From assembly GCA_959601495.1 (NCBI GenBank), contig CAUGPT010000003.1, forward strand, positions 2,222 through 66,221: DNA of 64,000 bases. The letters run 5' to 3'. Shown in pieces: positions 19,451 to 34,195 of this stretch; position 1 is the stretch's first letter, and every line of letters starts with the position of its first letter. Made by a program: the position numbers and the translations under genes. The notes below the pieces were generated by a model. The model made no database searches. It saw only the letters and a program-made list of their open reading frames with translations, and was not told the DNA's origin. Origin of the DNA: an uncultured Eubacteriales bacterium (GTDB lineage Bacteria; Bacillota; Clostridia; Oscillospirales; CAG-272).

Positions 19451-19484
19451 AAAAAAGCGCGGAGCGTTTGCTCCGCGCTTTTTT
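19451..19484 (-). terminator. rho-independent terminator ending the T-box-1 operon
   Basis: AAAAAA-GCGCGGAGC-GTTT-GCTCCGCGC-TTTTTT lies directly after the oxidoreductase gamma subunit stop. Confidence 0.85.
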
Positions 19485-20014
19485 CAATATTCCATACCCC
19501 GGCGTATTGCCGCAAGGTTTGCTTCAAGCAGATCCTGATGGCGGGCGGAAACTACCTTTTTAAGAGCAGCCTCCGTATCATCCGAGGCGACCGCGCCGGT
19601 CTCTTTTATAAACTTGCCCACCATTATCATGTTGGCAAGAGACGGAGTGCCCAGCTCGTTTGCGAGAGCCGTTGCGGGCACATAAAAGACCTTTACATCG
19701 TCGCGGCGCACCTTGCGCTCAACAAGGGTCGAATCCACAAATATGCATCCGCCGCCGACAACTGCGTCCTCGTATTTGTCAAGGGACGGCAGGTTCATTG
19801 CGATGAGCACATCCGGCTTTGAAACGATGGGAGAGCCGACAGGCTCATCCGACAGGATAACGCTGCAGTTCGCGGTACCTCCGCGCATTTCGGGGCCGTA
19901 GGACGGCAGCCAGCTGAGCTGGCGTCCCTCCAGAAGTCCCTTGTACGCAAGAAACTTACCCGCAAACAGCACGCCCTGTCCGCCGAAACCGGCTATCAAA
20001 AGCTGTGTCGTCAT
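19484..20014 (-). CDS. 2-oxoacid:ferredoxin (acceptor) oxidoreductase, gamma subunit
   Basis: MTTQLLIAGFGGQGVLFAGKFLA...GPEMRGGTANCSV is the typical gamma-subunit signature. Confidence 0.85.
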   Translation of the reverse strand: MTTQLLIAGFGGQGVLFAGKFLAYKGLLEGRQLSWLPSYGPEMRGGTANCSVILSDEPVGSPIVSKPDVLIAMNLPSLDKYEDAVVGGGCIFVDSTLVERKVRRDDVKVFYVPATALANELGTPSLANMIMVGKFIKETGAVASDDTEAALKKVVSARHQDLLEANLAAIRRGMEY

Positions 20015-20766
20015 TTTGCTTCGCCCTCCTTTGCGCTTCTGTCCTTGTATACGCCCAGAGGATAGTAGGGTATCATCTTATCGTCTATCCATTTGAGCGC
20101 CGCCTCGGGCGTCATGCCCCAGTTCGTCGGGCAGGACGAAATTACCTCAATAAGAGAGAATCCCTTGCCCTCGACCTGGTTGCGGAACGCTTTTTCGATC
20201 GCCGCCTTTGCGGTCTTTACATTCTTTACATTATTCACGGCAACGCGCGCAAGATACTCGGGACCGTCCAGTGCCGAAAGCATTTCGCACACCTTTATGG
20301 GATAGCCCGCGGTCTTTACGTCGCGTCCGTAGGGAGAGGTCTGCGTGACCTGACCCGGCAGCGACGTGGGCGCCATCTGACCGCCCGTCATACCGTATAT
20401 TGCGTTGTTTACGAATATAACCGTGATGTTTTCGTTTCTCGTAGCGGCGTGAACAGTCTCCGCCATACCGATGGATGCAAGGTCGCCGTCGCCCTGATAC
20501 GTGAATATGATATTTTCCGGCATAGAGCGCTTGAGACCGGTGGCGACAGCCGGAGCACGTCCGTGCGCCGCCTCGACCATATCGCACGCAAAGTAATTAT
20601 ACGCCATAACTGCGCAGCCTACTGGAGCAACACCCACCGTTCTGCCCTCGATGCCGAGAGTGTCTATAGCCTCGGCGACAAGGCGGTGGATTATGCCGTG
20701 GGTGCAGCCGGGGCAGTAATGCAGTTCGGCGTCGGTAAGGCTGTGCGGTTTTTCAAATACTACCAT
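20011..20766 (-). CDS. 2-oxoacid:ferredoxin oxidoreductase, beta subunit (thiamine-pyrophosphate binding)
   Basis: YCPGCTHG...GDGDLASIGMAE...NNAIYGMTGGQ are TPP and Fe-S motifs. 4-nt overlap with the gamma subunit. Confidence 0.85.
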   Translation of the reverse strand: MVVFEKPHSLTDAELHYCPGCTHGIIHRLVAEAIDTLGIEGRTVGVAPVGCAVMAYNYFACDMVEAAHGRAPAVATGLKRSMPENIIFTYQGDGDLASIGMAETVHAATRNENITVIFVNNAIYGMTGGQMAPTSLPGQVTQTSPYGRDVKTAGYPIKVCEMLSALDGPEYLARVAVNNVKNVKTAKAAIEKAFRNQVEGKGFSLIEVISSCPTNWGMTPEAALKWIDDKMIPYYPLGVYKDRSAKEGEAK

Positions 20767-21827
20767 TATTTAAGCCCTCCGTTCATTTTTCTGATGCTTT
20801 CAAGTACCTCGTCGGGAGACGGTATCATACCGCCCGCTCTGAAGCAAAGCTCCACGGGACGGCTGCACTGACAAGAGAGGCGCACATCCTCTATCATCTG
20901 GCCCATGGAAAGCTCGACAGAGATAAATCCGCGAACGTGTGCGGCAGCTTCGGCAATTGCTTTTTTGGGGAACGGCCAAACCGTTATGGGTCTGATGAGT
21001 CCCGCCTTTATACCCTCGCGGCGTGCGGCGGTCACAGCGTTTTTCGCAACTCTTGCAGCAATGCCGAAGGCTACGAGGCAAATGTCCGCATCCTCCGTCA
21101 TGTAGCTTTCCCAACGCGCCTCGTTCTCCTCTATCTGCTTGTAACGCTCAAATCTTTCGATGTTTGTGCGCTCAAGCTCTTCGGGCACAAGATAGAGAGA
21201 GTTTACTATGTTGTGCTCTCTCTTCATACCGGTACCGGTAACAGCCCAGGGCTTTTCGCACGCAGCACTGCTCTCCTCGGGCAGCAGCACGGGCTCCATC
21301 ATCTGACCCATGGTGCCGTCCGCCAGAAGCATTGCGGGCACGCGGTATTTGTCGGAAAGATCAAATGCAAGCGCCGTAAGATCAGCCATTTCCTGAACGG
21401 AATCGGGTGTGAGCACTATGAGATGATAGTCTCCGTGTCCGCCGCCCTTTGTCGCCTGGAAGTAGTCGGACTGCGAGGGCTGGATGCCGCCCAGTCCGGG
21501 GCCGCCGCGCTGTACGTTTACTATAAGCGCGGGCAGGTCTGCGCCCGCTATGTAGGAAATGCCCTCCTGCTTAAGGGATACTCCGGGAGAGGAGGAAGAT
21601 GTCATAACTCTCTTGCCGCTTGCGGACACTCCGTACACCATGTTGATGGCGGATATTTCGCTTTCCGCCTGCAGAAATGTGCCGCCGATCTTCGGCATGC
21701 GCTTTGCCATATATGCCGCAAGCTCTGTCTGAGGCGTTATGGGATATCCGAAATAGTGACGGCAGCCTGCGCGTATCGCCGCCTCGGCGATAGCCTCGTT
21801 GCCCTTCATAAGTACCTTTTCACTCAT
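20766..21827 (-). CDS. 2-oxoacid:ferredoxin oxidoreductase, alpha subunit
   Basis: MKGNEAIAEAAIRAGCRHYFGYPITPQTE is a POR/KOR alpha-type N-terminus. Confidence 0.85.
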   Translation of the reverse strand: MSEKVLMKGNEAIAEAAIRAGCRHYFGYPITPQTELAAYMAKRMPKIGGTFLQAESEISAINMVYGVSASGKRVMTSSSSPGVSLKQEGISYIAGADLPALIVNVQRGGPGLGGIQPSQSDYFQATKGGGHGDYHLIVLTPDSVQEMADLTALAFDLSDKYRVPAMLLADGTMGQMMEPVLLPEESSAACEKPWAVTGTGMKREHNIVNSLYLVPEELERTNIERFERYKQIEENEARWESYMTEDADICLVAFGIAARVAKNAVTAARREGIKAGLIRPITVWPFPKKAIAEAAAHVRGFISVELSMGQMIEDVRLSCQCSRPVELCFRAGGMIPSPDEVLESIRKMNGGLK

Positions 21828-21839
21828 AATCCTCTCACC

Positions 21840-22040
21840 TCACTTCTCTACCGTTATAACGCAATCGGGACACATGGTCGCGCAGAAGGCGCAGCCTATG
21901 CATTTATCCTGATCCGTAACGGCAGCGGGAAAATGGCCTTTTTTGTTGATCTTCGTTTTGTCGATAACGATGATACCGCGGGGACATACGCCGACGCAAA
22001 GTCCGCAGCCCTTGCAGATATCCGTTTTGAAGCTTACCAT
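21840..22040 (-). CDS. 4Fe-4S dicluster ferredoxin-type delta subunit
   Basis: 66 aa with CKGCGLCVGVCP and CIGCAFCATMCP. Start set at the ATG at 22040. The 119-aa track extension overlaps the upstream gene. Confidence 0.8.
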   Translation of the reverse strand: MVSFKTDICKGCGLCVGVCPRGIIVIDKTKINKKGHFPAAVTDQDKCIGCAFCATMCPDCVITVEK

Positions 22041-22065
22041 AGCCTCGTCCTGCCTTTCTGTGATT

Positions 22066-22722
22066 TTATTTCCAATATTTTTTCTGCAGCTCAAGCGGCA
22101 GAATATCGCCGTGCCCCGAAAGTTCTTCGGCAATATCGCGCCTTGCCGACGTAAACGCGACGGGCACGCCGGAAAGCTCCGAGAGCCGCTGTGCGGCACC
22201 GAAGGTCTCGATAACGTGCTGCGCCGCTGTTTCCTCGCCGAGATTTGAATTGTTTACTATACCCGTGACGGGCACGCCGCCCGCCGCCTCCACCTCGCGC
22301 ATGACGCAAAGAGCGTCCTCGGCGCTTCTTGTCAGCGGGCGGTAGAAGTTTACCACATACAGGTTTTCAAAATTGTTCTCTTCCCGTATGGCGGGCGCGA
22401 ATCTGCCGACGGCATATGCGCCGCTGTCGTCTCCGCCCACGTCTATGACCGCGTGCCGCTCTCTGTTCTGCACAACTGAGTACATCTCGGAGGGCAGAGT
22501 GGGCAGATCCACGTTTGTGTTCGCAAACGGCAGCGATATGACCGAAACGCCCGCGCGCCGCAGTTTTTCCTCGCTGTCTTTTGTGCGGAAATACGGGTTT
22601 ACTATGTCAAGATCGGCTATCACCGTGTCGTATCCGAGCGAGTGGAGCCGCAGGGCATAGTTTACCGCAATGTTAGTTTTGCCGCTGCCGTAATGGCCGC
22701 AGAAAAGAGTAAGCCTTTTCAT
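22066..22722 (-). CDS. MinD/ParA/CooC-like P-loop ATPase (ATP-binding protein)
   Basis: Deviant Walker A CGHYGSGKTNIAVN plus DLDIVNPYF. Embedded between ilvE and the oxidoreductase genes. Confidence 0.7.
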   Translation of the reverse strand: MKRLTLFCGHYGSGKTNIAVNYALRLHSLGYDTVIADLDIVNPYFRTKDSEEKLRRAGVSVISLPFANTNVDLPTLPSEMYSVVQNRERHAVIDVGGDDSGAYAVGRFAPAIREENNFENLYVVNFYRPLTRSAEDALCVMREVEAAGGVPVTGIVNNSNLGEETAAQHVIETFGAAQRLSELSGVPVAFTSARRDIAEELSGHGDILPLELQKKYWK

Positions 22723-23816
22723 TATTTGTTAAGACCGAGGGGGTATGTCCAGCCCATAAAGTCCTCGACGGTGCCGGTCTGTATGCCGTACAAAGTGTCG
22801 TAAAGCTTCTGGGAAAGCGCGCCGACCTTGCCGTCGGCAACGGTCATATCCTTGCCCTCGATGCAAAGCCAGCCGATAGGAGAAATTACCGCCGCGGTGC
22901 CGCTTGCGAATATCTCCTTAAGTGTGCCGTCCTTGCTCGCAGCCTGAATTTCGTCAATGGAGAGCTTGCGCTCGCTGACCTTGACGCCCCAGTGCTTCAG
23001 CAGTCTTATAACGGAATCTCTCGTAATTCCGGGGAGTATCGTGCCGGAGTCCAGAGGCGCGGTTATCACCTCGTCGCCGATATAGAAGAACGCGTTGGAC
23101 GTGCCTATCTCCTCAACATACTTGTGCTCTGCAGCGTCAAGCCACAAAACGTCCTTGCAGTTGTACTTCATTGCGTCCTGAGAAGCGCGCATACCGCCGC
23201 CGTAGTTGCCGCCGACCTTGGCATATCCCGTGCCGCCGCGCGCCGCGCGGATGTATTTATCCTGAACATATATACGCGTGGTTGAAAGTCCGCCGTCGTT
23301 TGCGGCATAGTAAGAACCTGTGGGGCTGAGAATTATCATAAAGCGGTAGTGCTTTGCGGGAAGCACGGAGAAGGAGACCTCATCGCCGAAAATGAAGGGG
23401 CGAACATACAGTGCCGTACCGGGTGCATGAGGTACCCAGTCGATATCCTCTTTGATAACGGCGCGTACCGCCGCAACAAGAAGATCGTCGGGCAGCTCGG
23501 GAATGCACATACGCTCGTTTGTTCTCTTCATTCTCGCAACGTTCATGTCGGGTCTGAAAAGCTGAATGTCGCCGTCGGGAGTGCGGTATGCCTTCATACC
23601 CTCGAACATCATCTGCGCGTAGTGCAGAACGCAGGATGCGGGCTCGATGAGAATAGGCTCGTGGGGAACGACTCTGCCGTCGTGCCAGCCCTCGCCCTCA
23701 TCATAGTCCATTACAAACATATGATCCGTAAAGTATTTCGCAAAGCCCAGTTTTGTTTCGTCCTCGGGACGCTTTTTGGGATGTGTCGTTCTCGTTACGG
23801 GAAAAACGTAGTTCAT
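22722..23816 (-). CDS. ilvE: branched-chain amino acid aminotransferase
   Basis: 364 aa class IV aminotransferase pattern: LHYAQMMFEGMKAYR...GGTGYAKVGGNY...GITRDS. Confidence 0.85.
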   Translation of the reverse strand: MNYVFPVTRTTHPKKRPEDETKLGFAKYFTDHMFVMDYDEGEGWHDGRVVPHEPILIEPASCVLHYAQMMFEGMKAYRTPDGDIQLFRPDMNVARMKRTNERMCIPELPDDLLVAAVRAVIKEDIDWVPHAPGTALYVRPFIFGDEVSFSVLPAKHYRFMIILSPTGSYYAANDGGLSTTRIYVQDKYIRAARGGTGYAKVGGNYGGGMRASQDAMKYNCKDVLWLDAAEHKYVEEIGTSNAFFYIGDEVITAPLDSGTILPGITRDSVIRLLKHWGVKVSERKLSIDEIQAASKDGTLKEIFASGTAAVISPIGWLCIEGKDMTVADGKVGALSQKLYDTLYGIQTGTVEDFMGWTYPLGLNK

Positions 23817-23846
23817 GATATTTTCTCCTTTATATATTGATAAAAA

Positions 23847-24635
23847 TTATATACTGTATAATTCGCGTCTGCGGTCGGCAAACACGTTTATGCTGTCTCG
23901 TATACCGCCGAGCACCGACATATCGCAGTCGGCGCAGATTATCTCCTCGCCGCATCCCGCTTTTGACAGAACGCCGCCAAGAGGATCGTATATGACGGAA
24001 GAGCCGCCGTATACCGTCTCGCCGGCAGTTCCGCAGGAATTGCACAGCGCAAGAAACATCTGATTTTCTATTGCCCGCGCTCTTGTAAGCGCTTCAAGCT
24101 GCATCGTGCGGACACTCGGCCACTGCGAAACAAGGAAAAGCACGTCAAGGGGGACCTCGGCGCTCATTGTGCGAGCCGCCTCGGGAAAGCGGATGTCATA
24201 GCATATAAGCACGCCGCACCGCACGCCGTCAAGGGTGAAGGTGCAGAAATGATCGCCCGCCCTGAAATACTCATGCTCGCCCATGGGGGTGAAAAGATGA
24301 GTTTTGTCGTACGATGCAATGCACTCGCCGCTTCTGTCAAAAACATACGAAGTGTTGTACACTTTTCCGCCGCGGGCGTCCGAAACGCTGCCCGCCACTA
24401 TGTTAACGCCGAATTCTTTCGCCGCGCCGCCGATCTCGCGTCTGACCCTCTCGCCGTCCTTGTCGGAAAGAGCGGAAAGCCCCTCTTTCGGGAAAAAGCC
24501 CGTGTTCCACGTTTCGGGAAGCACACAGACATCGCAGCCGTCGGCGCATGCTTTTTCGATAAGCCGTTTTGCGGCATCGAAATTTTCATCCGGCGCCGCA
24601 AGCCGCATATTCATCTGAATACATGATATTTTCAT
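23847..24635 (-). CDS. carbon-nitrogen hydrolase family protein (nitrilase / omega-amidase-like)
   Basis: The Glu-Lys-Cys triad context is present: VLPETWNTGF, YDKTHLF, VLICYDIRFPE. Confidence 0.8.
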   Translation of the reverse strand: MKISCIQMNMRLAAPDENFDAAKRLIEKACADGCDVCVLPETWNTGFFPKEGLSALSDKDGERVRREIGGAAKEFGVNIVAGSVSDARGGKVYNTSYVFDRSGECIASYDKTHLFTPMGEHEYFRAGDHFCTFTLDGVRCGVLICYDIRFPEAARTMSAEVPLDVLFLVSQWPSVRTMQLEALTRARAIENQMFLALCNSCGTAGETVYGGSSVIYDPLGGVLSKAGCGEEIICADCDMSVLGGIRDSINVFADRRRELYSI

Positions 24636-24662
24636 TTTGCCTTACGCCTCCGATTTGTTAGT

Positions 24663-26945
24663 TTACAGTCGGTTTCTTTGTATTTTTCCGGTCGAAGTTT
24701 TGGGCAGCTCGTCGCGGAACACGACGAGGCGGGGATATTTGTAAGGAGCCGTATGTGTCTTGACGTAGTTCTGAATTTCTTTTTTCAGCTCTTCCGTCGG
24801 CTCCGTGCCCTTTGTAAGCACCACGCTTGCCTTTACTATCTGACCGCGCACCTCGTCGGGGGCTGCGGAAACTCCGCATTCAAGCACATAAGGCAGCTCC
24901 ATGATAACGCTTTCTATCTCGAAAGGTCCTATGCGGTATCCCGATGACTTGATAATGTCGTCCACTCTGCCCACATACCAGTAGAAGCCGTCCTCATCGC
25001 GCCAGGCGGTGTCGCCCGTATGGTAGAAGCCGTCGTGCCGGACTTCTTTTGTCTTTTCCTCATCGCCGTAGTAGCCGGTAAAGAGTCCGCAGGGCGCGCC
25101 TTCCGATACGTCAATGACGATCTCGCCGACCTCGCCGTCGGGCACAGGCTCGCCGTTTGCGTCAACAAGGGAGACCTTGTAGATAGGCGCGGGCTTGCCC
25201 ATGGAGCCTATCTTGTGCGGCGCGCCGCGCAGGTTGCCGATGACCATTGTAGTCTCGGACTGACCGAAGCCCTCAATTATCTGAAGCCCGGTCGCCTTTT
25301 CAAACTGACGGTACACCTCGGGGTTCAGCGCTTCTCCAGCAGTCGTCATGTGCTTGACGCTTGAAAGATCATACTTTGTAAGATCCTCTTTTATCATCAT
25401 GCGCAGCATTGTCGGCGGTGCGCAGAAGGTGGTAATTTGATATTTTTTGAACATGGGCAGTATATCGGCAGCGTCAAAACGGTCAAAGTCGTATACGAAC
25501 GTTGCCGCCTCGCAAAGCCACTGACCGTAAAGCTTGCCCCACATTGCCTTTGCCCAGCCCGTATCGGATATGGTAAAGTGCAGACCGTCGGGGTCGCAGC
25601 AGTGCCAGTATTTTGCCGTATGGAAATGCCCGAGGGCGTATTTGTAGTTGTGCGCCGCGATCTTCGGATATCCGGAAGTTCCGGATGTGAAGAACATGAG
25701 CATAAGATCGTCGCCGCCGGGCGCATCCGCCGGGCGCTCGTAGTGAGAGCTGAAAAGACGGTATTCGTCGTCAAAGCTTCTCCATCCCTCGCGACTTGCG
25801 CCGACAAGCAAAAGATTTTTCATTTTGCCGTAAGTCTTGCAGGCGGCCTCGATCTCCGCTGCCGTGTCGGGAGTGCTTATGACCGTTTCAATGCCCGCGG
25901 CATTGAAACGGTATTCGAAATCGTGCTGCTGAAGCTGACAGACTGCGGGAATCGCTATCGCTCCCAGCTTATTCAGTCCCAGCATCGCAAACCAGAACTC
26001 GTATGCGCGCCGCAGCACAAGCATTACTCTGTCTCCGCGCTTTATGCCGAGAGAGCTGAAATAGTTTGCGCATCTTGCGGATGCCTTTTTCATATTCTCA
26101 AAGGTAAAGCGGCGCTCGGTCCTGTCGCGGGCAATATGCAGCATTGCAAGTTTATCCGGGCTGCGGGATGCAAGTTCATCGACAATGTCAAAAGCGAAAT
26201 TGAAATGCTCCGTATTTTTGAATGTTATCGAAAGAGGCGTTCCGCGCTCGTTTTTCACGACGTCGACGTATTCGCTGTAGATACGTTTTTTCGTATCCTG
26301 CCTTACGGTCTTCGTCTCCTCGATGCTGCGCGCGGGCGCAAGCTCGGGGATAGGCTCGCCGGAGGGGTTAAGCACTATTGCGTAGAACTCACAGTCCTCG
26401 CCGTTTACGGCTATCATGCCGTGAGGTGTTGACGAATCGTAATATACGCTGTCGCCGCGGCCGAGAACGACGCTGTGCTCGCCTATCTGAACACGCAGAT
26501 GGCCCGAGATAACTATATCAAGCTCCTGCCCTTCGTGAGTGGTAAGCTCAATGTCGGCGCTCTGCGCCGATGGGTCATACGCGCTGCGGACGTACAGCGG
26601 TTCAGCTATCCTGTTCTGAAAAGCGTATGCCAGATTGTAGTACGTCATGCCGTGGGCGTTGGCTATCTCCTGCCCCTCGCCGCTTCTTGTAAGCGTAAAG
26701 GAGCGCAGAGTCGGGCTGTGACCCTCGATTATATCGGTAACGTCAACGTTGAAGGCAAGAGCGCAGCGGTATATGAACGCAAAGTTCAAATCGCTTCTGC
26801 CCGCCTCGCATTCAAGGTATTCGGCGACGGTGACATCCGTTTTCTCCGCCATTTCCTCGGGGCTGAGCCCCTCGATCTCGCGCAGCTCGCGTATGCGCGC
26901 CGCCATCTCGCCTATTTTGTAGTCAAGAGCCGTGATCTGTTTCAT
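24663..26945 (-). CDS. XRE-HTH + cupin + AMP-binding (acyl-CoA synthetase/ligase) fusion protein, paralog 1
   Basis: N-terminus IRELREIEGLSPEEMAEKTDVTVAEYLECEAG (HTH_3), then a cupin (HEGQELDIVISGHLRVQIG...GDSVYYDSSTPHG). AMP-binding motifs follow: FFTSGTSGYPK, GEAL, YHTGD, GRVDDIIKSSGYRIGPFEIE, GKIQR. Start at ATG 26945. Confidence 0.85.
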   Translation of the reverse strand: MKQITALDYKIGEMAARIRELREIEGLSPEEMAEKTDVTVAEYLECEAGRSDLNFAFIYRCALAFNVDVTDIIEGHSPTLRSFTLTRSGEGQEIANAHGMTYYNLAYAFQNRIAEPLYVRSAYDPSAQSADIELTTHEGQELDIVISGHLRVQIGEHSVVLGRGDSVYYDSSTPHGMIAVNGEDCEFYAIVLNPSGEPIPELAPARSIEETKTVRQDTKKRIYSEYVDVVKNERGTPLSITFKNTEHFNFAFDIVDELASRSPDKLAMLHIARDRTERRFTFENMKKASARCANYFSSLGIKRGDRVMLVLRRAYEFWFAMLGLNKLGAIAIPAVCQLQQHDFEYRFNAAGIETVISTPDTAAEIEAACKTYGKMKNLLLVGASREGWRSFDDEYRLFSSHYERPADAPGGDDLMLMFFTSGTSGYPKIAAHNYKYALGHFHTAKYWHCCDPDGLHFTISDTGWAKAMWGKLYGQWLCEAATFVYDFDRFDAADILPMFKKYQITTFCAPPTMLRMMIKEDLTKYDLSSVKHMTTAGEALNPEVYRQFEKATGLQIIEGFGQSETTMVIGNLRGAPHKIGSMGKPAPIYKVSLVDANGEPVPDGEVGEIVIDVSEGAPCGLFTGYYGDEEKTKEVRHDGFYHTGDTAWRDEDGFYWYVGRVDDIIKSSGYRIGPFEIESVIMELPYVLECGVSAAPDEVRGQIVKASVVLTKGTEPTEELKKEIQNYVKTHTAPYKYPRLVVFRDELPKTSTGKIQRNRL

Positions 26946-27014
26946 TTGTTTTTCCCTCCGTGCGTTGATGTGTGACAGATGCAAAGCGCATTCGGCGCCC
27001 CGCACAGCAATTGG

Positions 27015-27300
27015 AACGAAAAAAGCACCCGTCCCAAAGCTTTGGATTACTTTGAGACGAGTGCCGAAACATCAGCTACCCGCGGTACCACTCAAATTGC
27101 GCCGTAAATAGACGCCTCTCAGGCTCTGTCAAGCCGTATGCATTTCACGCAGCAGTTACGGGAAGGCTCTACTTGCCCGCATGGGCTTTCTTCCTTCCGG
27201 CTCAGAAGCTACAACCGACGCACCGTTTCCGACAGCTCACACCGACCGCTGCCTCTCTGCAGGACGTTTTGCATCAATACTCTTCGTCTTTGCCTTTACA
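27015..27300 (-). promoter_or_regulatory. T-box riboswitch leader 1 (Stem I with AGAGAG/GGTG distal elements, Stem III, T-box sequence, terminator)
   Basis: Minus strand contains AATTTGAGTGGTACCGCGGG (plus 27079-27098). The terminator GCACTCGTCTCAAAG...CTTTGGGACGGGTGCTTTTTT lies at plus 27019-27064. The 5' end has a GA-motif and AGAGTA S-turn. Confidence 0.85.
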
Positions 27301-27305
27301 TTCTC

Positions 27306-27334
27306 AGTATAATCCAACACTATTCAGTTGTCAA
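27306..27334 (-). promoter_or_regulatory. sigma-A promoter of T-box leader 1
   Basis: Minus strand: TTGACA, 17 nt, TATACT. Only 20 nt downstream of the paralog-2 stop codon. Confidence 0.7.
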
Positions 27335-27353
27335 GAGGGAAAACGAATTTTTA

Positions 27354-29621
27354 TCAGAGCTTGTTTCTCTGAATTTTTCCGCTGGTGGTCTTGGGCAGCT
27401 CGTCGCGGAACACCACAAGACGGGGATATTTATAAGGCGCGGTATGCGACTTTACATAGTTCTGAATTTCTTTCTTCAGTTCTTCCGTCGGCTGCGTACC
27501 CTTTGTAAGCACAATGCTTGCCTTTACTATCTGTCCGCGAACCTCGTCGGGAGCGGCGGAAACTCCGCATTCAAGCACATAAGGCAGTTCCATGATAACG
27601 CTTTCGATCTCGAAAGGCCCTATGCGGTATCCCGAGGACTTGATGATATCGTCCACTCTGCCCACGTACCAGAAGTAGCCGTCCTCGTCGCGCCATGCGG
27701 TGTCGCCCGTATGGTACACGCCGCCGCGCATACATTCCGCGGTCTTTTCGGGCTCCTTGTAGTATTCGTTGAACAGTCCCACGGGAGCGCCCTTGTCAAG
27801 GCGGATGACGATCTCACCCGTTTCACCGCAGGGAACGCTGTGGCCGTCCGCATCAACGATGTCAACATCGTACTGGGGAGAGGGCTTGCCCATGGAACCG
27901 GGACGCACCTCTGTGCCCACAAGGTTTGCAACGGTAAGCGTAGTCTCCGTCTGACCGAAGCCCTCGGCGATGCTGAGGCCCGTCGCCGCCATAAACTGTT
28001 TTGCGATCTCGGGATTGAGCGCTTCGCCGGCGGTGGTCATATGCTTTATTGTAGAGAAATCGTAGCTTGCAAGATCCTCTTTCATCATCATGCGCAGCAT
28101 TGTAGGCGGCGCGCAGAATGTGGTGACTTTGTATTTGCCCAGAAGCGGCATGATGTCGCGGGCGTTGAAGCGGTCGAAATCATATACGAACACCGCGCCC
28201 TCGCACATCCACTGACCGTACAGCTTACCCCAGAGGGACTTACCCCAGCCTGTGTCGGATATGGTAAAGTGCAGCCCGTCGGGCTCGCAGCAGTGCCAGT
28301 ACTTGGCGGTCACGAAATGACCGAGCGCATAAGTATGGCTGTGCTCGACCATTTTAGGCTCGCCCGTTGTGCCTGAGGAGAAGAACATAAGCGCCGCGTC
28401 GCGCCCGCAGGGGGTATCCTCCGTGCGGGAGAAGTGGCTTGAATACAGTGCGTACTCGGAGTCGAAGTCGTGCCAGCCGGGGCGGTTTTCGCCCACAAGT
28501 ATCATATTTTTAACGGCGGGACACTGCTCCGCGGCTCTGCGCGCTATCTCCGCCGTGTCTCCCTTTGCCGTGCAAAGAAGAGTGGTAACTCCGGCAGACT
28601 TGAAGCGGTATACAAAATCGTGCTCCTGAAGCTGGAACGTTGCGGGGATCGCAACCGCGCCGAGCTTGTGCAGAGCTATCATCGCAAACCAGAACTGATA
28701 GTGACGGCGGAGCACAAGCATTACCTTGTCGCCCGCGCCGATACCGAGGGATTTGAAGTAGTTCGCGCATCTTGCGGACTCTTTCTTTATATCGGAGAAC
28801 GTAAAGCGTCTCTCGTTCTTGTTCTCGTCAAGATATACCATGGCGAGCTTGTCCGGGTATCTGTCCGCGATAGCGTCCACAACGTCAAAGCCGAAGTTGA
28901 AGCTGTCCGTGTTTTTAAAGTCTATTTTCTTGAGAACTCCGTTTTCATCCTCCGCTGCGTCAACAAACTTCTCGCAGAGAAGTCCCGTTGCGGGGCGCAG
29001 GGACACAACGCTGCTGCGCACCTCGGATTCTTTTGTTTCCTCACCCGGCAGCACCACCGCGCAGAAAACGCACTCTTTGCCGTCAACGGCAATCATTCCG
29101 TGGGGTATGGAGGAGTTGTAGTATATGCTGTCGCCCTCGTGCAGAACCTCTTTATTCGTACCCACCTGTACAAGAAGCGATCCGGAAACGATAAGGTCAA
29201 ATTCCTGTCCGCTGTGCTTTGTAAGGTGTATGGGCTTGTTCTGAAGTTCGGGAGAATACTCATAGCGCACCCAGTACGGCTCTGCTATCTTGTGGCGGAA
29301 CTCGGGGGCAAGGTTTGCAATGCTGATGCCCTCCTCCTTTGCCGTCTGCTGACCCTTGCCGCGTCTTGTAACGGTGTAGGACGACAGACGTGCGCCGCGT
29401 CCCTCAAGAAGCTCGGTAAGCTCAATGCCGAAGGCAAGCGCGCATTTATGTATAAATGTAAACGGCAGATCGGTGCGACATGCTTCATAGTCGCGGTATT
29501 CATCGAGGGAGACCTCGGTCTTCTCCGCCATCTCTTCTTCCGTAAAGCCCATGACTTCACGCATTTCGCGTATTCTGTATGCGATCTCGTGAAGCTGCGT
29601 CATTGTGGACTGTGTGCTCAT
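27354..29621 (-). CDS. XRE-HTH + cupin + AMP-binding (acyl-CoA synthetase/ligase) fusion protein, paralog 2
   Basis: Same three-domain architecture as 24663-26945. GGAGG RBS. The C-terminal ~100 aa are nearly identical to paralog 1. Confidence 0.85.
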   Translation of the reverse strand: MSTQSTMTQLHEIAYRIREMREVMGFTEEEMAEKTEVSLDEYRDYEACRTDLPFTFIHKCALAFGIELTELLEGRGARLSSYTVTRRGKGQQTAKEEGISIANLAPEFRHKIAEPYWVRYEYSPELQNKPIHLTKHSGQEFDLIVSGSLLVQVGTNKEVLHEGDSIYYNSSIPHGMIAVDGKECVFCAVVLPGEETKESEVRSSVVSLRPATGLLCEKFVDAAEDENGVLKKIDFKNTDSFNFGFDVVDAIADRYPDKLAMVYLDENKNERRFTFSDIKKESARCANYFKSLGIGAGDKVMLVLRRHYQFWFAMIALHKLGAVAIPATFQLQEHDFVYRFKSAGVTTLLCTAKGDTAEIARRAAEQCPAVKNMILVGENRPGWHDFDSEYALYSSHFSRTEDTPCGRDAALMFFSSGTTGEPKMVEHSHTYALGHFVTAKYWHCCEPDGLHFTISDTGWGKSLWGKLYGQWMCEGAVFVYDFDRFNARDIMPLLGKYKVTTFCAPPTMLRMMMKEDLASYDFSTIKHMTTAGEALNPEIAKQFMAATGLSIAEGFGQTETTLTVANLVGTEVRPGSMGKPSPQYDVDIVDADGHSVPCGETGEIVIRLDKGAPVGLFNEYYKEPEKTAECMRGGVYHTGDTAWRDEDGYFWYVGRVDDIIKSSGYRIGPFEIESVIMELPYVLECGVSAAPDEVRGQIVKASIVLTKGTQPTEELKKEIQNYVKSHTAPYKYPRLVVFRDELPKTTSGKIQRNKL

Positions 29622-29649: not shown

Positions 29650-29925
29650 AATTAAAAAACCCGTCCCAAGAAAAACTCTTGAGACGGGAAACTTACTTAT
29701 TACCCGCGGTACCACTCAAATTGCGTCTTTCGACGCCACTCAGACTCTGACAAGCCGTATGCATTTACGCAGCAGTAACGTAAAGAACTAAGGCGGACCG
29801 CCCTCATTCTTTCAGCTCGGAAGTGATGGGAAATTAAACACCTGGGCTGTCGGGATCGCACCGTCCCCGACTCTCTGAAAGCTTGCATGCTTTTCCGTCT
29901 TCGTCATAGCCTTTATTTATTCTTT
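29650..29925 (-). promoter_or_regulatory. T-box riboswitch leader 2
   Basis: AATTTGAGTGGTACCGCGGGTA (plus 29701-29722), Stem III GCGTC-GAAA-GACGC, and terminator TTTCCCGTCTCAAGAG...CTTGGGACGGGTTTTTT (plus 29654-29690). Confidence 0.85.
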
Positions 29926-30035: not shown

Positions 30036-32504
30036 CTATTCAATGCCGAGAAGCTTTACGGTCTCCTCGCGCATTTTATATTTGAGTATCTTGCCTGCAG
30101 CGTTCATGGGGAACGTTTTTGTAAATATAAAGTACCTGGGAACCTTGTGCGTTGCCATGCCGGACATACCGAAGGCTTTCATCTCCGTCTCGTCGGCACT
30201 CTCGCCGTCGTTCAGTATGACCCATGCGCAGGCCTCCTCGCCGTACTTCTTGTCCGGTACGCCCACGACCTGTACGTCGCGCACCTTGGGATTTGTGAGG
30301 TAATACTCCTCTATCTCGCGGGGGTATATGTTCTCGCCGCCGCGGATTATCATGTCCTTAAGGCGCCCCGTCACCTTGTAATATCCGTCGGGGGTGCGGC
30401 AGCATATATCTCCGGAGTGCAGCCAGCCCTCGCTGTCGATAGCCTGTGCGGTAGCACGGGGCATTTTGTAGTAGCCCTTCATAACGTTGAAGCCGCGAAC
30501 CACAAATTCGCCCGCTTCCCCGTCGCCGAGAACGGCGCCGGTCTCGGGGTCGATTATCCTGCACTCAACTCCGGGGAAAGCGCTGCCAACGGTCTCAACT
30601 CTGTGGTCGAGATCCTCATTGACTTCTCCCATGGTGCATCCGGGGGAGGACTCTGTCTGACCGTAGACGGAGAGTATTTCCGTCATATTCATTTCCGCTG
30701 CCGCACGGCGCATAAGCTCGGGCGGGCAGTTTGCGCCCGCCATAATGCCAGTACGCATATATGAGAAATCCGTTTTCGCAAAATCCTCATGCGCAAACAT
30801 TGCGATAAACATTGTAGGCACGCCGTTGAAGCAGGTTATCTTCTCCGCCGTGATGCACGCAAGCGAGGACTTGGGCGAGAAATACGGCAGTGGCGAGAGC
30901 GTGCCGCCGTGGGTCATCATGGACGTCATGGAAAGTACCATGCCGAAGCAGTGGAACATGGGCACCTGTATCATCATACGGTCCGCCGTTGACATATCCA
31001 TTCTGTCGCCTATGATCTTGCCGTTGTTTATTATGTTGCTGTGCGTCAGCATGACTCCCTTGGGAAAGCCCGTTGTGCCGGAAGTGTACTGCATATTGGC
31101 AACGTCGCCGGAGCGGACCATGGACGCGCGCCTGCGTACCTCCTCGCGGGGAACCTCGGCGCCCCTCTCGAGCATTTCGTTCCACTCAAGGCAGCCGGGC
31201 ATATTAAAGCCGACGGTCACAACGTTTCTCAGAAACGGCAGCCGCTTTGCGTAAAGGGGCGCGTCGGGCTTTTTCGTTTCAAGCTCGGGGCACAGATCGC
31301 GGATGATCTTGCCGTAGTCCGTATCCTTGCAGTTCTCTATCATTACAAGCGTATGAGTGTCGGACTGGCGCAGAAGGTATTCTATCTCGTGGGTCTTGTA
31401 GGCGGTGTTGACCGTTACAAGCACCGCGCCTATCTTCACAGCCGCCCAGAAGGACAGAAACCACTCAGGCACGTTCGTAGCCCACACAGCGACATGATGC
31501 CCGGGCTTTACGCCGAGGGCTATGAACGCCGCGGCGACCTCATCCACGTCGCGGCGGAACTGGGAATACGTGCGGGTGTAGTCAAGCGTCGTGTATCTGA
31601 AGGCGTACTGGTCCGGATATTTTTCCGCCATAACGTCCAGCACCTGAGAGAACGTCATATCAAGCACATCGTATTTCTTCCAGGGAAATGTACCCGTGCC
31701 CGCGCGGTTCGTATACAGCACTTCCCTGCGGGACGTTCTCGACACCTCGCCCATATAGCTGCAGAACTGTGTCAGAACTATATCGGGATCGTCGATCTCG
31801 TCGTTCCACGCCGCGCATACAAACGAATCGTAGTTGAGAGAGGCAAGCGCTTCGGTAAACTCTCCGCAGGGCAGCTCTCCCTCTCCGATAAGCACGTTGA
31901 CTCCGTCGGCACTGCGGTCTCCCAGTCGGACATAGCGGATGTACGCGCCAAGGTTCGTAATTGTATCCTCCGCGCTTTCATGCGTATCGAAATAAGTGCT
32001 GCGTACATCCCAGCACGCGCCGAGGGCGGCGCTTGCGCATCCGTTGAGAAACGCCACGGTACGCTTGGTGTCGGCAAATCTGCCCACGGTCTCTATAAGA
32101 ATTTCAACATCCTTTTTCTCAGCCGCAGCGCATACCTTTGAGAGCTTTTCGGCAAGACGGCTGTCAGCCTCACCGTCGCTGTCCGCTCCGCAGGCGCGGA
32201 TGATCACACGTCCCGCGCCGGAGGAGTGCGCCATATCAATATATCTTTTCAGAAGCTCGGGCGTAACGTCACCGCCGTCCGCGTCAAACGGACAGGTGAG
32301 CGCCGCCAGCTCAAGCCCTCTGTTATAAAGCTTTCTCTTTGCCTCCGAAACATGCTCCGGACGCAGGATGCTGTCGGAATGACGAATTCTTTCGTCCTCC
32401 GCGTCGGAAATCTCAATGCCAGAAAAGCCGTAGTCGTCGGCATATCTGCAAAGCGACAAAAACGAAGCAAGCCTTACGTTTTCCGTTGAAAAAGTGAGCT
32501 TCAC
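30036..32504 (-). CDS. xylose-isomerase-like TIM barrel (sugar phosphate isomerase/epimerase family) fused to an AMP-dependent acyl-CoA synthetase/ligase
   Basis: The first ~270 aa resemble AP_endonuc_2 / TIM barrel proteins. The remainder carries YTSGTTGFPKGV, GYYK, HSGD, GRLKDMIIRGGENIYPREIE and GKILK. The GTG start overlaps the upstream stop (GTGA). Confidence 0.8.
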   Translation of the reverse strand: MKLTFSTENVRLASFLSLCRYADDYGFSGIEISDAEDERIRHSDSILRPEHVSEAKRKLYNRGLELAALTCPFDADGGDVTPELLKRYIDMAHSSGAGRVIIRACGADSDGEADSRLAEKLSKVCAAAEKKDVEILIETVGRFADTKRTVAFLNGCASAALGACWDVRSTYFDTHESAEDTITNLGAYIRYVRLGDRSADGVNVLIGEGELPCGEFTEALASLNYDSFVCAAWNDEIDDPDIVLTQFCSYMGEVSRTSRREVLYTNRAGTGTFPWKKYDVLDMTFSQVLDVMAEKYPDQYAFRYTTLDYTRTYSQFRRDVDEVAAAFIALGVKPGHHVAVWATNVPEWFLSFWAAVKIGAVLVTVNTAYKTHEIEYLLRQSDTHTLVMIENCKDTDYGKIIRDLCPELETKKPDAPLYAKRLPFLRNVVTVGFNMPGCLEWNEMLERGAEVPREEVRRRASMVRSGDVANMQYTSGTTGFPKGVMLTHSNIINNGKIIGDRMDMSTADRMMIQVPMFHCFGMVLSMTSMMTHGGTLSPLPYFSPKSSLACITAEKITCFNGVPTMFIAMFAHEDFAKTDFSYMRTGIMAGANCPPELMRRAAAEMNMTEILSVYGQTESSPGCTMGEVNEDLDHRVETVGSAFPGVECRIIDPETGAVLGDGEAGEFVVRGFNVMKGYYKMPRATAQAIDSEGWLHSGDICCRTPDGYYKVTGRLKDMIIRGGENIYPREIEEYYLTNPKVRDVQVVGVPDKKYGEEACAWVILNDGESADETEMKAFGMSGMATHKVPRYFIFTKTFPMNAAGKILKYKMREETVKLLGIE

Positions 32505-33901
32505 GCCTGTTCCTCCTCAAAGATTATCTTGTTGAGAGCGTTTACGTACGCTCTTATACTTGCGCCTACAATATCCGTTGAAAGACCGTTGCCGGAGAAC
32601 AGCTTTCCGCCGCTGCGAAGCCTTACTACGGCGTCGCCCAGCGCTTCCTTGCCCTGCGTTACGGCGCGTATCTGAAATGCGTCCAGCTCATAGTGATGAC
32701 CGACGCACTGCTCTATCGCACGGAACGCCGCGTCAATAGGTCCGTCGCCCGTTGCGACGCCCACGGACTTTTCTCCCGCGCGTACCATGGCAACACTTGC
32801 CATGGCGGACGTTATGTTGCTGCTTGTTATATTGTAGCTTTCAAGATGATATGCGGAGGGCGCCTGCATTGCGTTTGACGCAATGATAGCCTCAAGCTCG
32901 GCAGCCCCCACGGAGCCTTTGCGGGCGCATACATCCATAAGCGCGTCATATACCTTGCCGTCGTCCTCGGCGCTCAGCGTGTATCCCAGTTTTTTTGCCG
33001 CTTCGCTGACCTGTGCGGCAGTGCTGTCACCGTGGAGATATATACCGGCGTCGCCGTCGTTCTCCCGCTCCGCAGTGTCAGAGGGATGTGCCGCCTCAAC
33101 GCCGCGCAGAAGCGACGCAACGTCGCTGTAAAGCTCGGTAAGCTTCAGCGATGTGGCAACTCCCATTTCCTCGCCGCGCGCCTCAAGCATTTTCGCAAAT
33201 TTCACGGTATTGAGCGCGTCATCTCCCGCAACGGCGACCTTTACGCCCGACGCACCCGCGCGTATGGCGGCGGCGGCGCAGGCGGCGCCCATGCTGATAG
33301 CGTCGGAGGGACGCACATACACATCTGCCCCGCAGCTTTCCTTTACATATTTGACAAGCGAAGCGATCTCCTCCGGCATTGCCCTGCCCGCGTCGTCGCA
33401 GAGGGTCACGATCTGCGCACCCGCATCCGCGGCACACTTCGCAGCCTTGCACAGAAACGCAACGTCGGCGCGGGTCGCGTCAAGCGCCGCAAACTCCACC
33501 TTGGGGCATTTTGCTTTCGCGGCAGTGCACAGACGGGTGATAAAGTCTGCCATTTTCGCTTCTTTCATATGGTAGCCGTACTCCATTGTAACGGTAGATA
33601 CGGGCAGCGCTATCTGCAGGCAGGGGTCCTTCGCGCCGCGAACGCACTCCCACGCGGCGTCGATCGTTTCCTCGCTGTCGCCCGCGGGGATCGTGACCGT
33701 CGCGTTCTTCACACCCGACGATATGGTTTTATATATTATAGTATCTTCTTTCGGACAGCGCACCGGGGCAAGCTCGATTGCGCCCATGCCGACGGCGTCC
33801 ATGCACGCGGCGACCGCGGTCTTTTCGCGGAAAAGAAGCTCCGCGCCCCTGCTGCGCGCAAGCGCACTGAGAGTATAATCGACAACAACTGTTTTTTTCA
33901 T
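32501..33901 (-). CDS. 2-isopropylmalate synthase / homocitrate synthase family protein (LeuA-like; catalytic motifs appear degenerate, LeuA-dimer regulatory domain retained)
   Basis: HMGL-like barrel followed by the C-terminal ATGDGPIDAAFRAIEQ...GNGLSTDIVGASIRAYVNALNKI. Start at ATG 33901 behind GAGG. The 40-aa track extension runs into the T-box terminator. Confidence 0.75.
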   Translation of the reverse strand: MKKTVVVDYTLSALARSRGAELLFREKTAVAACMDAVGMGAIELAPVRCPKEDTIIYKTISSGVKNATVTIPAGDSEETIDAAWECVRGAKDPCLQIALPVSTVTMEYGYHMKEAKMADFITRLCTAAKAKCPKVEFAALDATRADVAFLCKAAKCAADAGAQIVTLCDDAGRAMPEEIASLVKYVKESCGADVYVRPSDAISMGAACAAAAIRAGASGVKVAVAGDDALNTVKFAKMLEARGEEMGVATSLKLTELYSDVASLLRGVEAAHPSDTAERENDGDAGIYLHGDSTAAQVSEAAKKLGYTLSAEDDGKVYDALMDVCARKGSVGAAELEAIIASNAMQAPSAYHLESYNITSSNITSAMASVAMVRAGEKSVGVATGDGPIDAAFRAIEQCVGHHYELDAFQIRAVTQGKEALGDAVVRLRSGGKLFSGNGLSTDIVGASIRAYVNALNKIIFEEEQA

Positions 33902-33925
33902 GGTAAAACCTCGCTTGTGAAAAAA

Positions 33926-34195
33926 TAGAAAAACCCGCAGAAACCTCTCGGTTTCTGCGGGGTGACTTAACAAATATAAAGCCACGGTACCACCCGCATT
34001 GCCGCTCGCGCGGCCGCTCACAGGCTCAATAAAGCCTTCGGTCTGTCACGGGACCTCCCGGAATCCCTTACACTGCATTTTCGGGGATCCTGCTCCGATA
34101 GGAGACAGCATACGCGGATCCATGCCGTCTCGCACCGACCGACGGCTCTCTGAAAGGCTTGCCGCGAATGCTTAATATCATCATCGCATTTCTTA
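33926..34195 (-). promoter_or_regulatory. T-box riboswitch leader 3 (probable Leu, CUC specifier candidate)
   Basis: K-turn GATGA, AGAGAG bulge, distal loop GGTCGGTGCGA, T-box AATGCGGGTGGTACCGTGGC (plus 33981-34000), and terminator CCCCGCAGAAACC-GAGA-GGTTTCTGCGGG-TTTTT (plus 33926-33964). Confidence 0.85.

Follow-up and report, generated by a model that had tools for sequence, protein, structure and literature searches.

We analyzed a 64,000-nucleotide (nt) stretch of DNA from an uncultured Eubacteriales bacterium (Clostridia, Oscillospirales, CAG-272; GenBank assembly GCA_959601495.1, contig CAUGPT010000003.1, positions 2,222 to 66,221), hereinafter the window, in whose numbering all coordinates are given. 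On its minus strand, positions 19451-27334 hold a promoter, a T-box leader with its terminator, eight closely packed genes and a strong terminator, which together form one unit. The genes code for an acyl-coenzyme A (CoA) ligase, a C-N hydrolase, the branched-chain aminotransferase IlvE, a P-loop NTPase and the four subunits of a 2-oxoacid:ferredoxin oxidoreductase. An earlier note on this DNA had proposed that this unit is a starvation-inducible module for making Leu, Ile and Val from branched short-chain acids. We found the unit to be gated by Val and to be the last of three successive T-box units, Leu, then Ile, then Val.

Three successive T-box units with Leu, Ile and Val specifiers

The promoter of the Val unit, P1 (27334..27306, minus strand), reads TTGACA-17-TATACT and agrees with the consensus at 11 of 12 positions; nearly every orthologous leader that we listed has an equivalent promoter ahead of it. 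The leader that follows, T1 (27018..27299, minus), covers model positions 1-219 of the Rfam T-box family RF00230 (match 27299..27050) with 83.1 bits and an E-value of 1.5e-18 in a permissive search of 26900-27450, or of 1.7e-16 when the whole window is searched. A scan of the window at the Rfam gathering threshold returned only tRNA and no T-box, which reflects the threshold (83.1 bits against a gathering score of 93) and not the absence of the element. The E-values of the three window T-boxes run from 1e-16 to 1e-18 with the model covered in full, the orthologous leaders of one related locus (L003) score 102.7 and 97.4 bits, and two of the four further loci with Rfam T-box matches exceed the gathering score.

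T1 displays the K-turn, specifier loop, AG bulge and distal loop of a T-box stem I, both in the cmscan alignment and in an in-register alignment of 42 leaders. Its AGAGAG bulge and GGUGUGA distal loop are accompanied by a conserved AAUUUGAGUGGUACCGCGGG element, which is near-invariant across the aligned leaders, and, according to RNAalifold, pairing is kept by compensatory changes at the base of stem I, in the helix that closes the specifier loop, in stem II and in the terminator. T1 has the specifier GUA (Val; 27212..27210) and, like all three window leaders, the T-box bulge UGGU, which fits a tRNA with discriminator base A. At the 3′ end a 17-bp terminator stem (27065..27024), followed by a T run, has CUCGUCUCAA in common with the 3′ strand of the antiterminator, which its own 5′ strand overlaps. 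By its model match, architecture and covariation, T1 is a T-box leader with a branched-chain amino acid specifier, GUA for Val.

The eight co-directional open reading frames (ORFs) after T1 are separated by gaps of only -4 to 30 nt, and the unit closes at an intrinsic terminator (about 19451..19484, minus; AAAAAAGCGCGGAGC-AAAC-GCTCCGCGCTTTTTT) with a folding energy of -33.4 kcal/mol (z -5.7), which none of 200 shuffled sequences matched. The layout drawn in the earlier note, with a promoter and a T-box ahead of eight tightly spaced co-directional genes and a strong terminator behind them, is thereby borne out; that note had staked its proposal on a branched-chain codon in the specifier loop, and GUA is such a codon. 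Its "single T-box" holds for the eight genes but misses an array of three, since the permissive Rfam search of the whole window recovered two further T-boxes directly upstream on the same strand.

The nearer of these leaders, T2 (29916..29677, minus; 83.1 bits), stands behind promoter P2 (29960..29932, minus) and has the specifier AUC (Ile; 29827..29825) and a terminator at 29688..29660. It precedes the gene for LigI (27354..29621, minus; 755 amino acids), a paralog of LigV, the ligase of the Val unit, with the same three-domain architecture. The farther leader, T3 (34193..33955, minus; 90.3 bits), stands behind promoter P3 (34229..34201, minus), which agrees with the consensus at 12 of 12 positions, and has the specifier CUC (Leu; 34104..34102) and a terminator at 33961..33934. 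Under T3 lie a gene for a LeuA-like protein with HMGL-like and LeuA_dimer domains (32501..33904, minus) and one for Lig3 (30036..32504, minus; 822 amino acids), in which a xylose-isomerase-like TIM barrel (AP_endonuc_2) is fused to a FadD-like AMP-forming ligase. All specifiers were assigned by their position in stem I, and all three leaders come with a strong promoter and a terminator of their own. The joint service of Leu, Ile and Val by one module, as supposed in the earlier note, does not hold: the eight-gene unit is Val-gated and its ligase clade is always paired with Val specifiers (see below), and Ile and Leu have T-box and ligase units of their own directly upstream.

Ligase clades and their specifiers across 80 loci

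LigV (24663..26945, minus; 760 amino acids) most likely starts at ATG 26945, which has GGAGGG in front of it and lies 60 nt inside the listed ORF with the start GTG 27005. The earlier note was right in calling it an acyl-CoA ligase but overlooked its three-domain fusion, in which an N-terminal module of about 220 residues with a helix-turn-helix (HTH_XRE) and a Cupin_2 domain, present likewise in LigI, precedes the AMP-forming ligase. The ligase part matches Pfam AMP-binding and AMP-binding_C and contains the adenylation motifs TSGTSGYPK, YHTGD, SSGYRIGPFEIES and PKTSTGKI. Its best relative among solved structures, far ahead of others, is MacsMa (3ETC; 585 bits), with about 57% identity over the catalytic domains and conservation of the alternate Trp of the pocket (KYW). 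The best NCBIfam family is MbcS, with 432.5 bits for LigV and 440.4 bits for LigI. Both characterized relatives prefer α-branched C4/C5 acids: MacsMa prefers 2-methylbutyrate (PMC10455477), and the acids that MbcS activates are 2-methylbutyrate and isobutyrate, isovalerate being a poor substrate (PMC10026030).

We fetched 80 loci from species-representative genomes by means of an alignment of homologs of the P-loop protein and searched them by tblastn with the operon's own proteins; nearly all are metagenome-assembled rumen and gut Clostridia (Oscillospiraceae, Acutalibacteraceae and Ruminococcus). As far as their contigs reach, all 80 keep the order ligase(s)-(amidase)-(IlvE)-NTPase-delta-alpha-beta-gamma, the amidase (the C-N hydrolase of the window) being sometimes and IlvE usually present. 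When full-length ligases are counted and the window is included, 33 loci carry both ligases, with LigI invariably ahead of LigV, 27 have only LigI and 11 only LigV, the last mostly on truncated contigs.

A neighbor-joining tree of 104 full-length HTH-cupin-ligases separates into two clades. We added all 99 leaders found ahead of HTH-cupin-ligases to the 42-sequence alignment (mafft --add) and read the specifier columns: AUC stands in 59 of 59 leaders ahead of Ile-clade ligases, and all 40 leaders ahead of Val-clade ligases have GUA (37) or GUC (3); the 15 leaders ahead of the LeuA-like gene have CUC. Thirteen leaders had been mis-called or missed by a parser of the closing helix, and by eye and with mafft --add none of them proved a real exception. 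Mean column identity is down to 54% among the leaders, and the ligases are 62-80% identical, yet the specifier is constant in each lineage. On the evidence of the tree and the aligned leaders, the partition of clades by specifier goes back to one ancient duplication, and we count it as one event.

Only 14 alignment positions part the clades at a conservation of at least 85%, 13 of them in the HTH-cupin module and one in the catalytic domain. The latter is Ala465 in all Val-clade ligases vs. Gly460 in all Ile-clade ligases, with Gly also in MacsMa. It comes directly after a conserved Gly-Trp, and in a gap-free alignment it falls on the Val of the motif GWVTGHSY in acetyl-CoA synthetase. The change from Gly to Ala would shrink the acyl pocket by about one methyl group, which fits isobutyrate (C4) for the Val clade and 2-methylbutyrate (C5) for the Ile clade. 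From the preferences of the relatives, the matching T-box specifiers and this Gly/Ala position, we infer that LigV is an isobutyrate-CoA ligase and LigI a 2-methylbutyrate-CoA ligase.

The genes of the Leu unit differ in kind. A true LeuA at 32501-33904 is ruled out by the loss of the RDGEQ and HxH motifs, in whose place stand SALAR and RPS; the same loss is seen in the LeuA-like orthologs of related loci, and the protein is very probably not an isopropylmalate synthase. It retains the leucine-binding LeuA_dimer domain and may be a leucine-sensing pseudoenzyme. Of the 80 loci, 39 contain the LeuA-like gene, the TIM-ligase gene or both, as a rule immediately upstream of the Ile unit, and the two are adjacent in every locus that has both; the TIM-barrel/FadD-like fusion itself is found in 38 loci and adjoins the LeuA-like gene wherever the contig reaches upstream. 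Because MbcS-type enzymes handle isovalerate poorly, a different type of ligase under the Leu T-box would fit the pathway, and our guess is that Lig3 is the isovalerate-CoA ligase.

The comparison yielded some further observations on the leaders and their distribution. Four Val-clade ligases have no intact T-box in front of them: in L001 a 27-nt gap follows LigI, L010 and L048 have a promoter-like sequence only, and in L058 the leader is GC-rich and degenerate, with GCGGGACCGCG instead of the T-box core. The base after the specifier (alignment column 144; 27209 and 29824 in the window), where A is usual, is G in 35 of 40 Val leaders; the Ile leaders have A (39), C (16) or G (4) there. The entire cluster, T-box leaders included, also occurs in assemblies binned as Sphaerochaetaceae/Spirochaetales (L013, L033, L043, L047, L076 and L079) and in one labeled Bacteroidaceae (L012). 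Ile leaders are present in L013 and L047, the latter of which has the Leu unit as well. Outside Firmicutes and a few other phyla, T-boxes are seldom found, and these spirochete-binned occurrences would represent either horizontal transfer of the operon with its riboswitch or a binning error.

Oxidoreductase, aminotransferase, amidase and NTPase

The last four genes of the Val unit code for the oxidoreductase. The delta subunit (21840..22040, minus; 66 amino acids; start at ATG 22040) is a ferredoxin-like protein for two [4Fe-4S] clusters with matches to Pfam Fer4 families and the motifs CKGCGLCVGVCP and CIGCAFCATMCP; tblastn recovered 195-nt matches to it in every related locus. The alpha subunit (20766..21827, minus; 353 amino acids) has the Pfam domains POR_N and PFOR_II and passes the NCBIfam VorB model NF005507 with 554 bits vs. 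a cut-off of 399. In the beta subunit (20011..20766, minus; 251 amino acids; Pfam TPP_enzyme_C), the translation has a thiamine pyrophosphate (TPP) motif (GDG...NN) as well as four Cys as possible ligands of a [4Fe-4S] cluster. The gamma subunit (19484..20014, minus; 176 amino acids) matches Pfam POR (1.2e-36), and its best NCBIfam model is the generic 2-oxoacid:ferredoxin oxidoreductase gamma family, under the cut-off. By Pfam matches and translations the enzyme thus has the four-subunit delta/alpha/beta/gamma make-up with TPP motif, cluster cysteines in beta and a delta subunit for two [4Fe-4S] clusters.

IlvE (22722..23816, minus) is a class IV, type II aminotransferase that surpasses the cut-offs of both PRK13357 (446.8 bits vs. 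307) and TIGR01123 (364.9 vs. 250), has the motif AKVGGNY around the lysine that binds pyridoxal phosphate, and has M. tuberculosis IlvE as its best match in the PDB (1.5e-99). The ligase with its 585 bits to MacsMa, and the alpha subunit and IlvE, both above their family cut-offs, fit the three steps of activation, reductive carboxylation and transamination that the earlier note had assigned to the unit.

The C-N hydrolase (23847..24635, minus; 262 amino acids) belongs to the nitrilase superfamily, with Pfam CN_hydrolase (4e-48) matched over its full length and the triad E41-K111-C145 in the translation. Its best NCBIfam model is that of the YafV-type amidohydrolases (PRK10438; 113 bits, under the cut-off of 249), and its closest relatives in the PDB are 3P8K, an uncharacterized S. 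aureus protein, followed by Nit2 (2W1V) and Nit3 (1F89). The gene is present in 17 loci, in 16 of which the IlvE is at least 67% identical to that of the window (85-90% in 14); in loci free of the amidase, 40 IlvE genes are less than 60% identical to it, the exceptions being L037 and the truncated L033. Two IlvE subtypes can be told apart, e.g., in L011, L016, L018, L022, L024, L027, L028, L032, L035, L042 and L044. Type A, to which the window's IlvE belongs (82-90% identical to it), is encoded upstream of the NTPase together with the amidase; type B (47-54%) occurs without the amidase, either upstream of the NTPase or after gamma. The suggestion of the earlier note that the amidase may work like an ω-amidase, pulling a Gln-dependent transamination forward, gains indirect support, though not proof, from this co-occurrence with type A IlvE and from the Nit2, Nit3 and YafV relatives; it stops short of a family assignment, given the score below the PRK10438 cut-off.

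The remaining gene codes for a P-loop NTPase of the SIMIBI class (22066..22722, minus; 218 amino acids) and directly precedes the delta gene in all related loci whose contigs reach that far. It has over 8000 homologs in the protein collection, the few source-named ones being called "hypothetical protein", and our literature search found no description of it. The Walker A motif is GHYGSGKT and the Walker B motif VIDVGGDD; there is an invariant His where MinD has its signature Lys, no invariant Cys, and, in the translation, VNNSNL in place of the NKxD of G3E GTPases. No Pfam or NCBIfam family scored above its cut-off, and a sequence search against solved structures matched only the P-loop, over about 40 residues. 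A confident AlphaFold model of it (predicted local distance difference test score, pLDDT, 83.7) recovered in Foldseek searches the NG domains of Ffh/FtsY and ATPase-type HypB, with E-values of 1e-9 to 1e-7 and a template modeling (TM) score of about 0.6. None of the named-subfamily signatures against which we compared it (the MinD/ParA Lys, the Mrp/NBP35 CXXC, the NifH cysteines and the G3E NKxD) is matched. On its motifs and modeled fold, the protein is a new SIMIBI subfamily tied to the oxidoreductase. Many SIMIBI proteins are cofactor-insertion chaperones, which makes a role in maturation plausible. The earlier note had spoken of a possible CooC/MinD-like maturation factor; this role is speculative, and the protein is as much like the signal recognition particle (SRP) GTPases or HypB as like MinD. 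As other candidate roles, electron transfer of the NifH type and Fe-S cluster carriage of the Mrp type are ruled out by the lack of an invariant Cys.

A predicted route from branched acids to branched-chain amino acids

We propose, with a probability of roughly 75%, that the Val T-box operon makes valine from isobutyrate and is one of three tRNA-gated units. A constitutive-looking σ70 promoter would drive the Val-specific leader, in which uncharged tRNA-Val (anticodon UAC, 3′ end ACCA) would pair with the GUA specifier and the UGGU bulge; this pairing would stabilize the antiterminator, allowing RNA polymerase to read into the eight genes. LigV, as an enzyme of the MacsMa/MbcS type, would then convert isobutyrate to isobutyryl-CoA, the VorB-type oxidoreductase would carboxylate this reductively to 2-oxoisovalerate with reduced ferredoxin, and IlvE would convert the 2-oxoisovalerate to valine. 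The amidase would probably clear the keto-amide by-product of a Gln-dependent transamination, as an ω-amidase does, and the NTPase would be an obligatory partner of the oxidoreductase, perhaps in its assembly or maturation. In the cluster as a whole, each uncharged branched-chain tRNA would open its own acid-activating enzyme, with the oxidoreductase and aminotransferase shared, such that isobutyrate, 2-methylbutyrate and probably isovalerate would be converted to valine, isoleucine and leucine.

We infer the biosynthetic direction from the control, the chemistry and precedent. T-boxes activate genes when a specific tRNA is uncharged and so switch on under starvation for the cognate amino acid, and AMP-forming ligases act in the activating direction. 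As precedents, the formation of 2-oxoisovalerate with isobutyryl-CoA and CO2 as starting materials is accepted for the 2-oxoisovalerate:ferredoxin oxidoreductase (VOR) of methanogens (PMC3087415), and the pathways from such acids to amino acids have been established in rumen bacteria by classical work (Allison and Robinson, cited in PMC7356843).

The most probable of the alternatives, although we think it unlikely, takes the match of clade and specifier for a frozen accident of the one duplication, with both ligases broad in their substrates and the T-boxes reporting a general shortage. The partition is indeed traceable to a single duplication, a single catalytic-domain residue separates the clades, and MbcS takes both 2-methylbutyrate and isobutyrate (PMC10026030). 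Against this, the specifier has stayed invariant in each clade despite the divergence of leaders and ligases given above, the division into 100% Gly and 100% Ala falls on the very position aligned with the acetyl-CoA synthetase Val after Gly-Trp, and 13 further clade-specific residues lie in the HTH-cupin part.

Isoleucine could also be reached from propionate via 2-oxobutyrate and IlvBCD, a route reported in some clostridia and methanogens. LigI, and possibly the whole system in loci that have only LigI, would then activate propionate. MacsMa does adenylate straight-chain acids from propionate (C3) to octanoate (C8), but it completes the CoA ester with 2-methylbutyrate, and many of its other adenylates stop before the thioester step (PMC10455477). 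Ferredoxin-dependent 2-oxoacid oxidoreductases are often promiscuous, and homology does not fix the substrate specificity, both of which would suit this route; the Ile clade, however, retains the Gly of MacsMa after Gly-Trp, and the Val-gated paralog has no straight-chain analog. We also noticed no ilvB, ilvC or ilvD, in tblastn searches that used the operon's proteins only and a scan of about a dozen flanking ORFs of the window, among which there were no ilv or leu genes. On balance, we give this route little chance.

Still less probable is that the ligases supply branched acyl-CoA primers for iso- and anteiso-fatty acids while the oxidoreductase and IlvE serve another purpose. MbcS, the best NCBIfam match, has precisely such a role in Staphylococcus aureus (PMC10026030), yet control by tRNA-Ile, tRNA-Val and tRNA-Leu and the invariant linkage to the VorB-type oxidoreductase, and usually to IlvE, point to amino acid supply, and no fatty-acid synthesis genes were noticed in the loci, which were searched only for homologs of the operon's proteins. 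A catabolic, Stickland-type flow from branched-chain amino acid through 2-oxoacid and acyl-CoA to the acid, yielding reduced ferredoxin, can be all but set aside: VOR and IlvE are classical catabolic enzymes of peptide fermenters and the reactions of both are reversible, but induction by T-boxes at amino acid scarcity is the opposite of a catabolic need, the ligases are AMP-forming and not energy-conserving ADP-forming or phosphotransacylase/kinase enzymes, and the specifier of each clade matches the amino acid that its acid would yield.

Several points weigh against our proposal of isobutyrate-to-valine synthesis in a tRNA-gated cluster. None of the three window T-boxes attains the Rfam gathering score (83.1, 83.1 and 90.3 vs. 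93 bits), and the base after the specifier is usually G in Val leaders and is C in 16 Ile leaders, instead of the usual A. LigV and LigI lie far under the 850-bit equivalog cut-off of MbcS, and we regard them as relatives that probably work like MbcS and MacsMa and not as MbcS equivalogs. Beta, gamma and delta match only generic or 2-oxoglutarate families, all below the cut-offs; because the ligases and these three subunits score in this way, homology does not fix the substrate specificity. The acyl-pocket argument relies on the alignment with the Val of GWVTGHSY, one of four acetate-pocket residues of acetyl-CoA synthetase. IlvE is missing from the covered sequence of about a quarter of the loci, in part because of truncated contigs. 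Finally, the arrangement poses a regulatory puzzle: in two-ligase loci, transcripts that have passed an Ile or Leu T-box would meet the terminator of the Val T-box, and with the shared oxidoreductase and IlvE behind that T-box, these would be induced only by Val limitation or by leak. Leaky termination, a second copy of the oxidoreductase elsewhere, or a habit of the three amino acids becoming limiting together could possibly account for this.

A further, tentative idea that we hold to be doubtful is that sensing is two-layered for each amino acid, a T-box being combined with a protein sensor on the entry enzyme, and that the NTPase is needed for the synthase to run. The HTH-cupin module, in which 13 of the 14 clade-separating residues lie, may be the sensor on LigI and LigV, and the dead LeuA-like protein, with its LeuA_dimer domain, may be the sensor for the Leu ligase. 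Such sensors may read the branched acid or the end-product amino acid and adjust enzyme activity, or transcription in the manner of the biotin ligase/repressor BirA. With regard to the latter, we found no convincing shared palindromic operator for the HTH domain upstream of the 42 leaders, where only the promoters are conserved.

Elsewhere in the window are genes for the beta subunit of a Na+-translocating oxaloacetate decarboxylase (42518-43648, minus), a glutamine-dependent asparagine synthase (44234-46096, plus) and the anaerobic ribonucleotide reductase NrdD with a C-terminal glutaredoxin domain (50027-52393, plus), neighbors that fit a strict anaerobe. After a tRNA-Arg(CCG) (2686-2762) come two matches to the Gut-1 small RNA family, both near the threshold and on opposite strands (2796-2867, plus, 48.4 bits; 2887-2970, minus, 40.4 bits; gathering score 50). 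One of the related loci (L008) has a 6S RNA (15417-15608, plus; 77 bits, which exceeds the gathering score) some 2 kb downstream of the cluster.

When set beside known systems, the leaders share with other RF00230 T-boxes, such as the Leu (CUC) T-box of Bacillus subtilis ilv-leu, a stem I (K-turn, specifier loop, AGAGA bulge and GGUGNRA distal loop), stem II, the pseudoknot region, stem III, the UGGN bulge and the mutually exclusive antiterminator and terminator; as in ilv-leu, the specifier matches the amino acid that would be made downstream. The genes under their control are those of short branched-acid CoA ligases and a ferredoxin-dependent 2-oxoacid oxidoreductase, and not an aminoacyl-tRNA synthetase, a canonical biosynthetic operon or a transporter. 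Tandem T-boxes of one specificity are known, whereas here three leaders, each with a different specifier, are spread among the genes of one co-directional cluster. The ligases possess all the adenylate-forming motifs of MacsMa and MbcS, but differ from both in the HTH_XRE and Cupin_2 module, the Gly/Ala pair of paralogs, the T-box control and the link to amino acid instead of lipid metabolism; our literature search found no description of such an HTH-cupin-ligase fusion.

The oxidoreductase resembles the VOR of methanogens and Thermococcales in its four subunits, its TPP and Fe-S motifs and an alpha subunit above the VorB cut-off; unlike these, it is bacterial, always has a dedicated NTPase gene ahead of it, and is predicted to be co-transcribed with a ligase and an aminotransferase. 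A Glu-Lys-Cys amidase beside one subtype of aminotransferase recalls the pairs of glutamine transaminase and ω-amidase (mammalian Nit2, E. coli YafV), and a transaminase and amidase are likewise paired in Bacillus methionine salvage; here, however, the partner is a class IV branched-chain aminotransferase with Gln as a putative donor.

The chemistry predicted for the cluster is that of the rumen pathway of Allison, Robinson and Peel, who in the 1960s-70s reportedly demonstrated the reductive carboxylation of branched acids in rumen bacteria by physiological and isotopic means, and the cluster comes from rumen and gut Clostridia. In our literature search, whose reach did not extend to the 2008 T-box census, we found no description of a T-box-controlled ligase/oxidoreductase/IlvE module and no paper that assigns genes or regulation to the rumen branched-acid pathway in bacteria; such genes also go unmentioned in a comparative study of RNA-motif regulons. 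This is consistent with the novelty that the earlier note had claimed for such a module. As far as we have checked, the parts are of known kinds, and their assembly, the array of three specifiers and the two accessory features, the HTH-cupin module and the NTPase, are new.

Fiber-degrading Clostridia of the rumen and gut need or use branched short-chain acids (isoacids) for Val, Ile and Leu, for which reason these acids are fed to dairy cattle. Through the cluster, a rumen pathway whose biochemistry has been known since the 1960s would gain assigned genes, the candidates being three ligases, each of predicted substrate, together with an oxidoreductase, an aminotransferase, an amidase and the new NTPase. 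The specifier of each T-box would act as a built-in label for the amino acid that its ligase serves, and the cluster could be used as a marker for isoacid-dependent organisms in metagenomes. It also directs attention to two unexplored protein features, an HTH-cupin domain fused to an enzyme and an NTPase tied to an oxidoreductase, and would widen the T-box regulon to a salvage route that proceeds via ferredoxin-dependent CO2 fixation.

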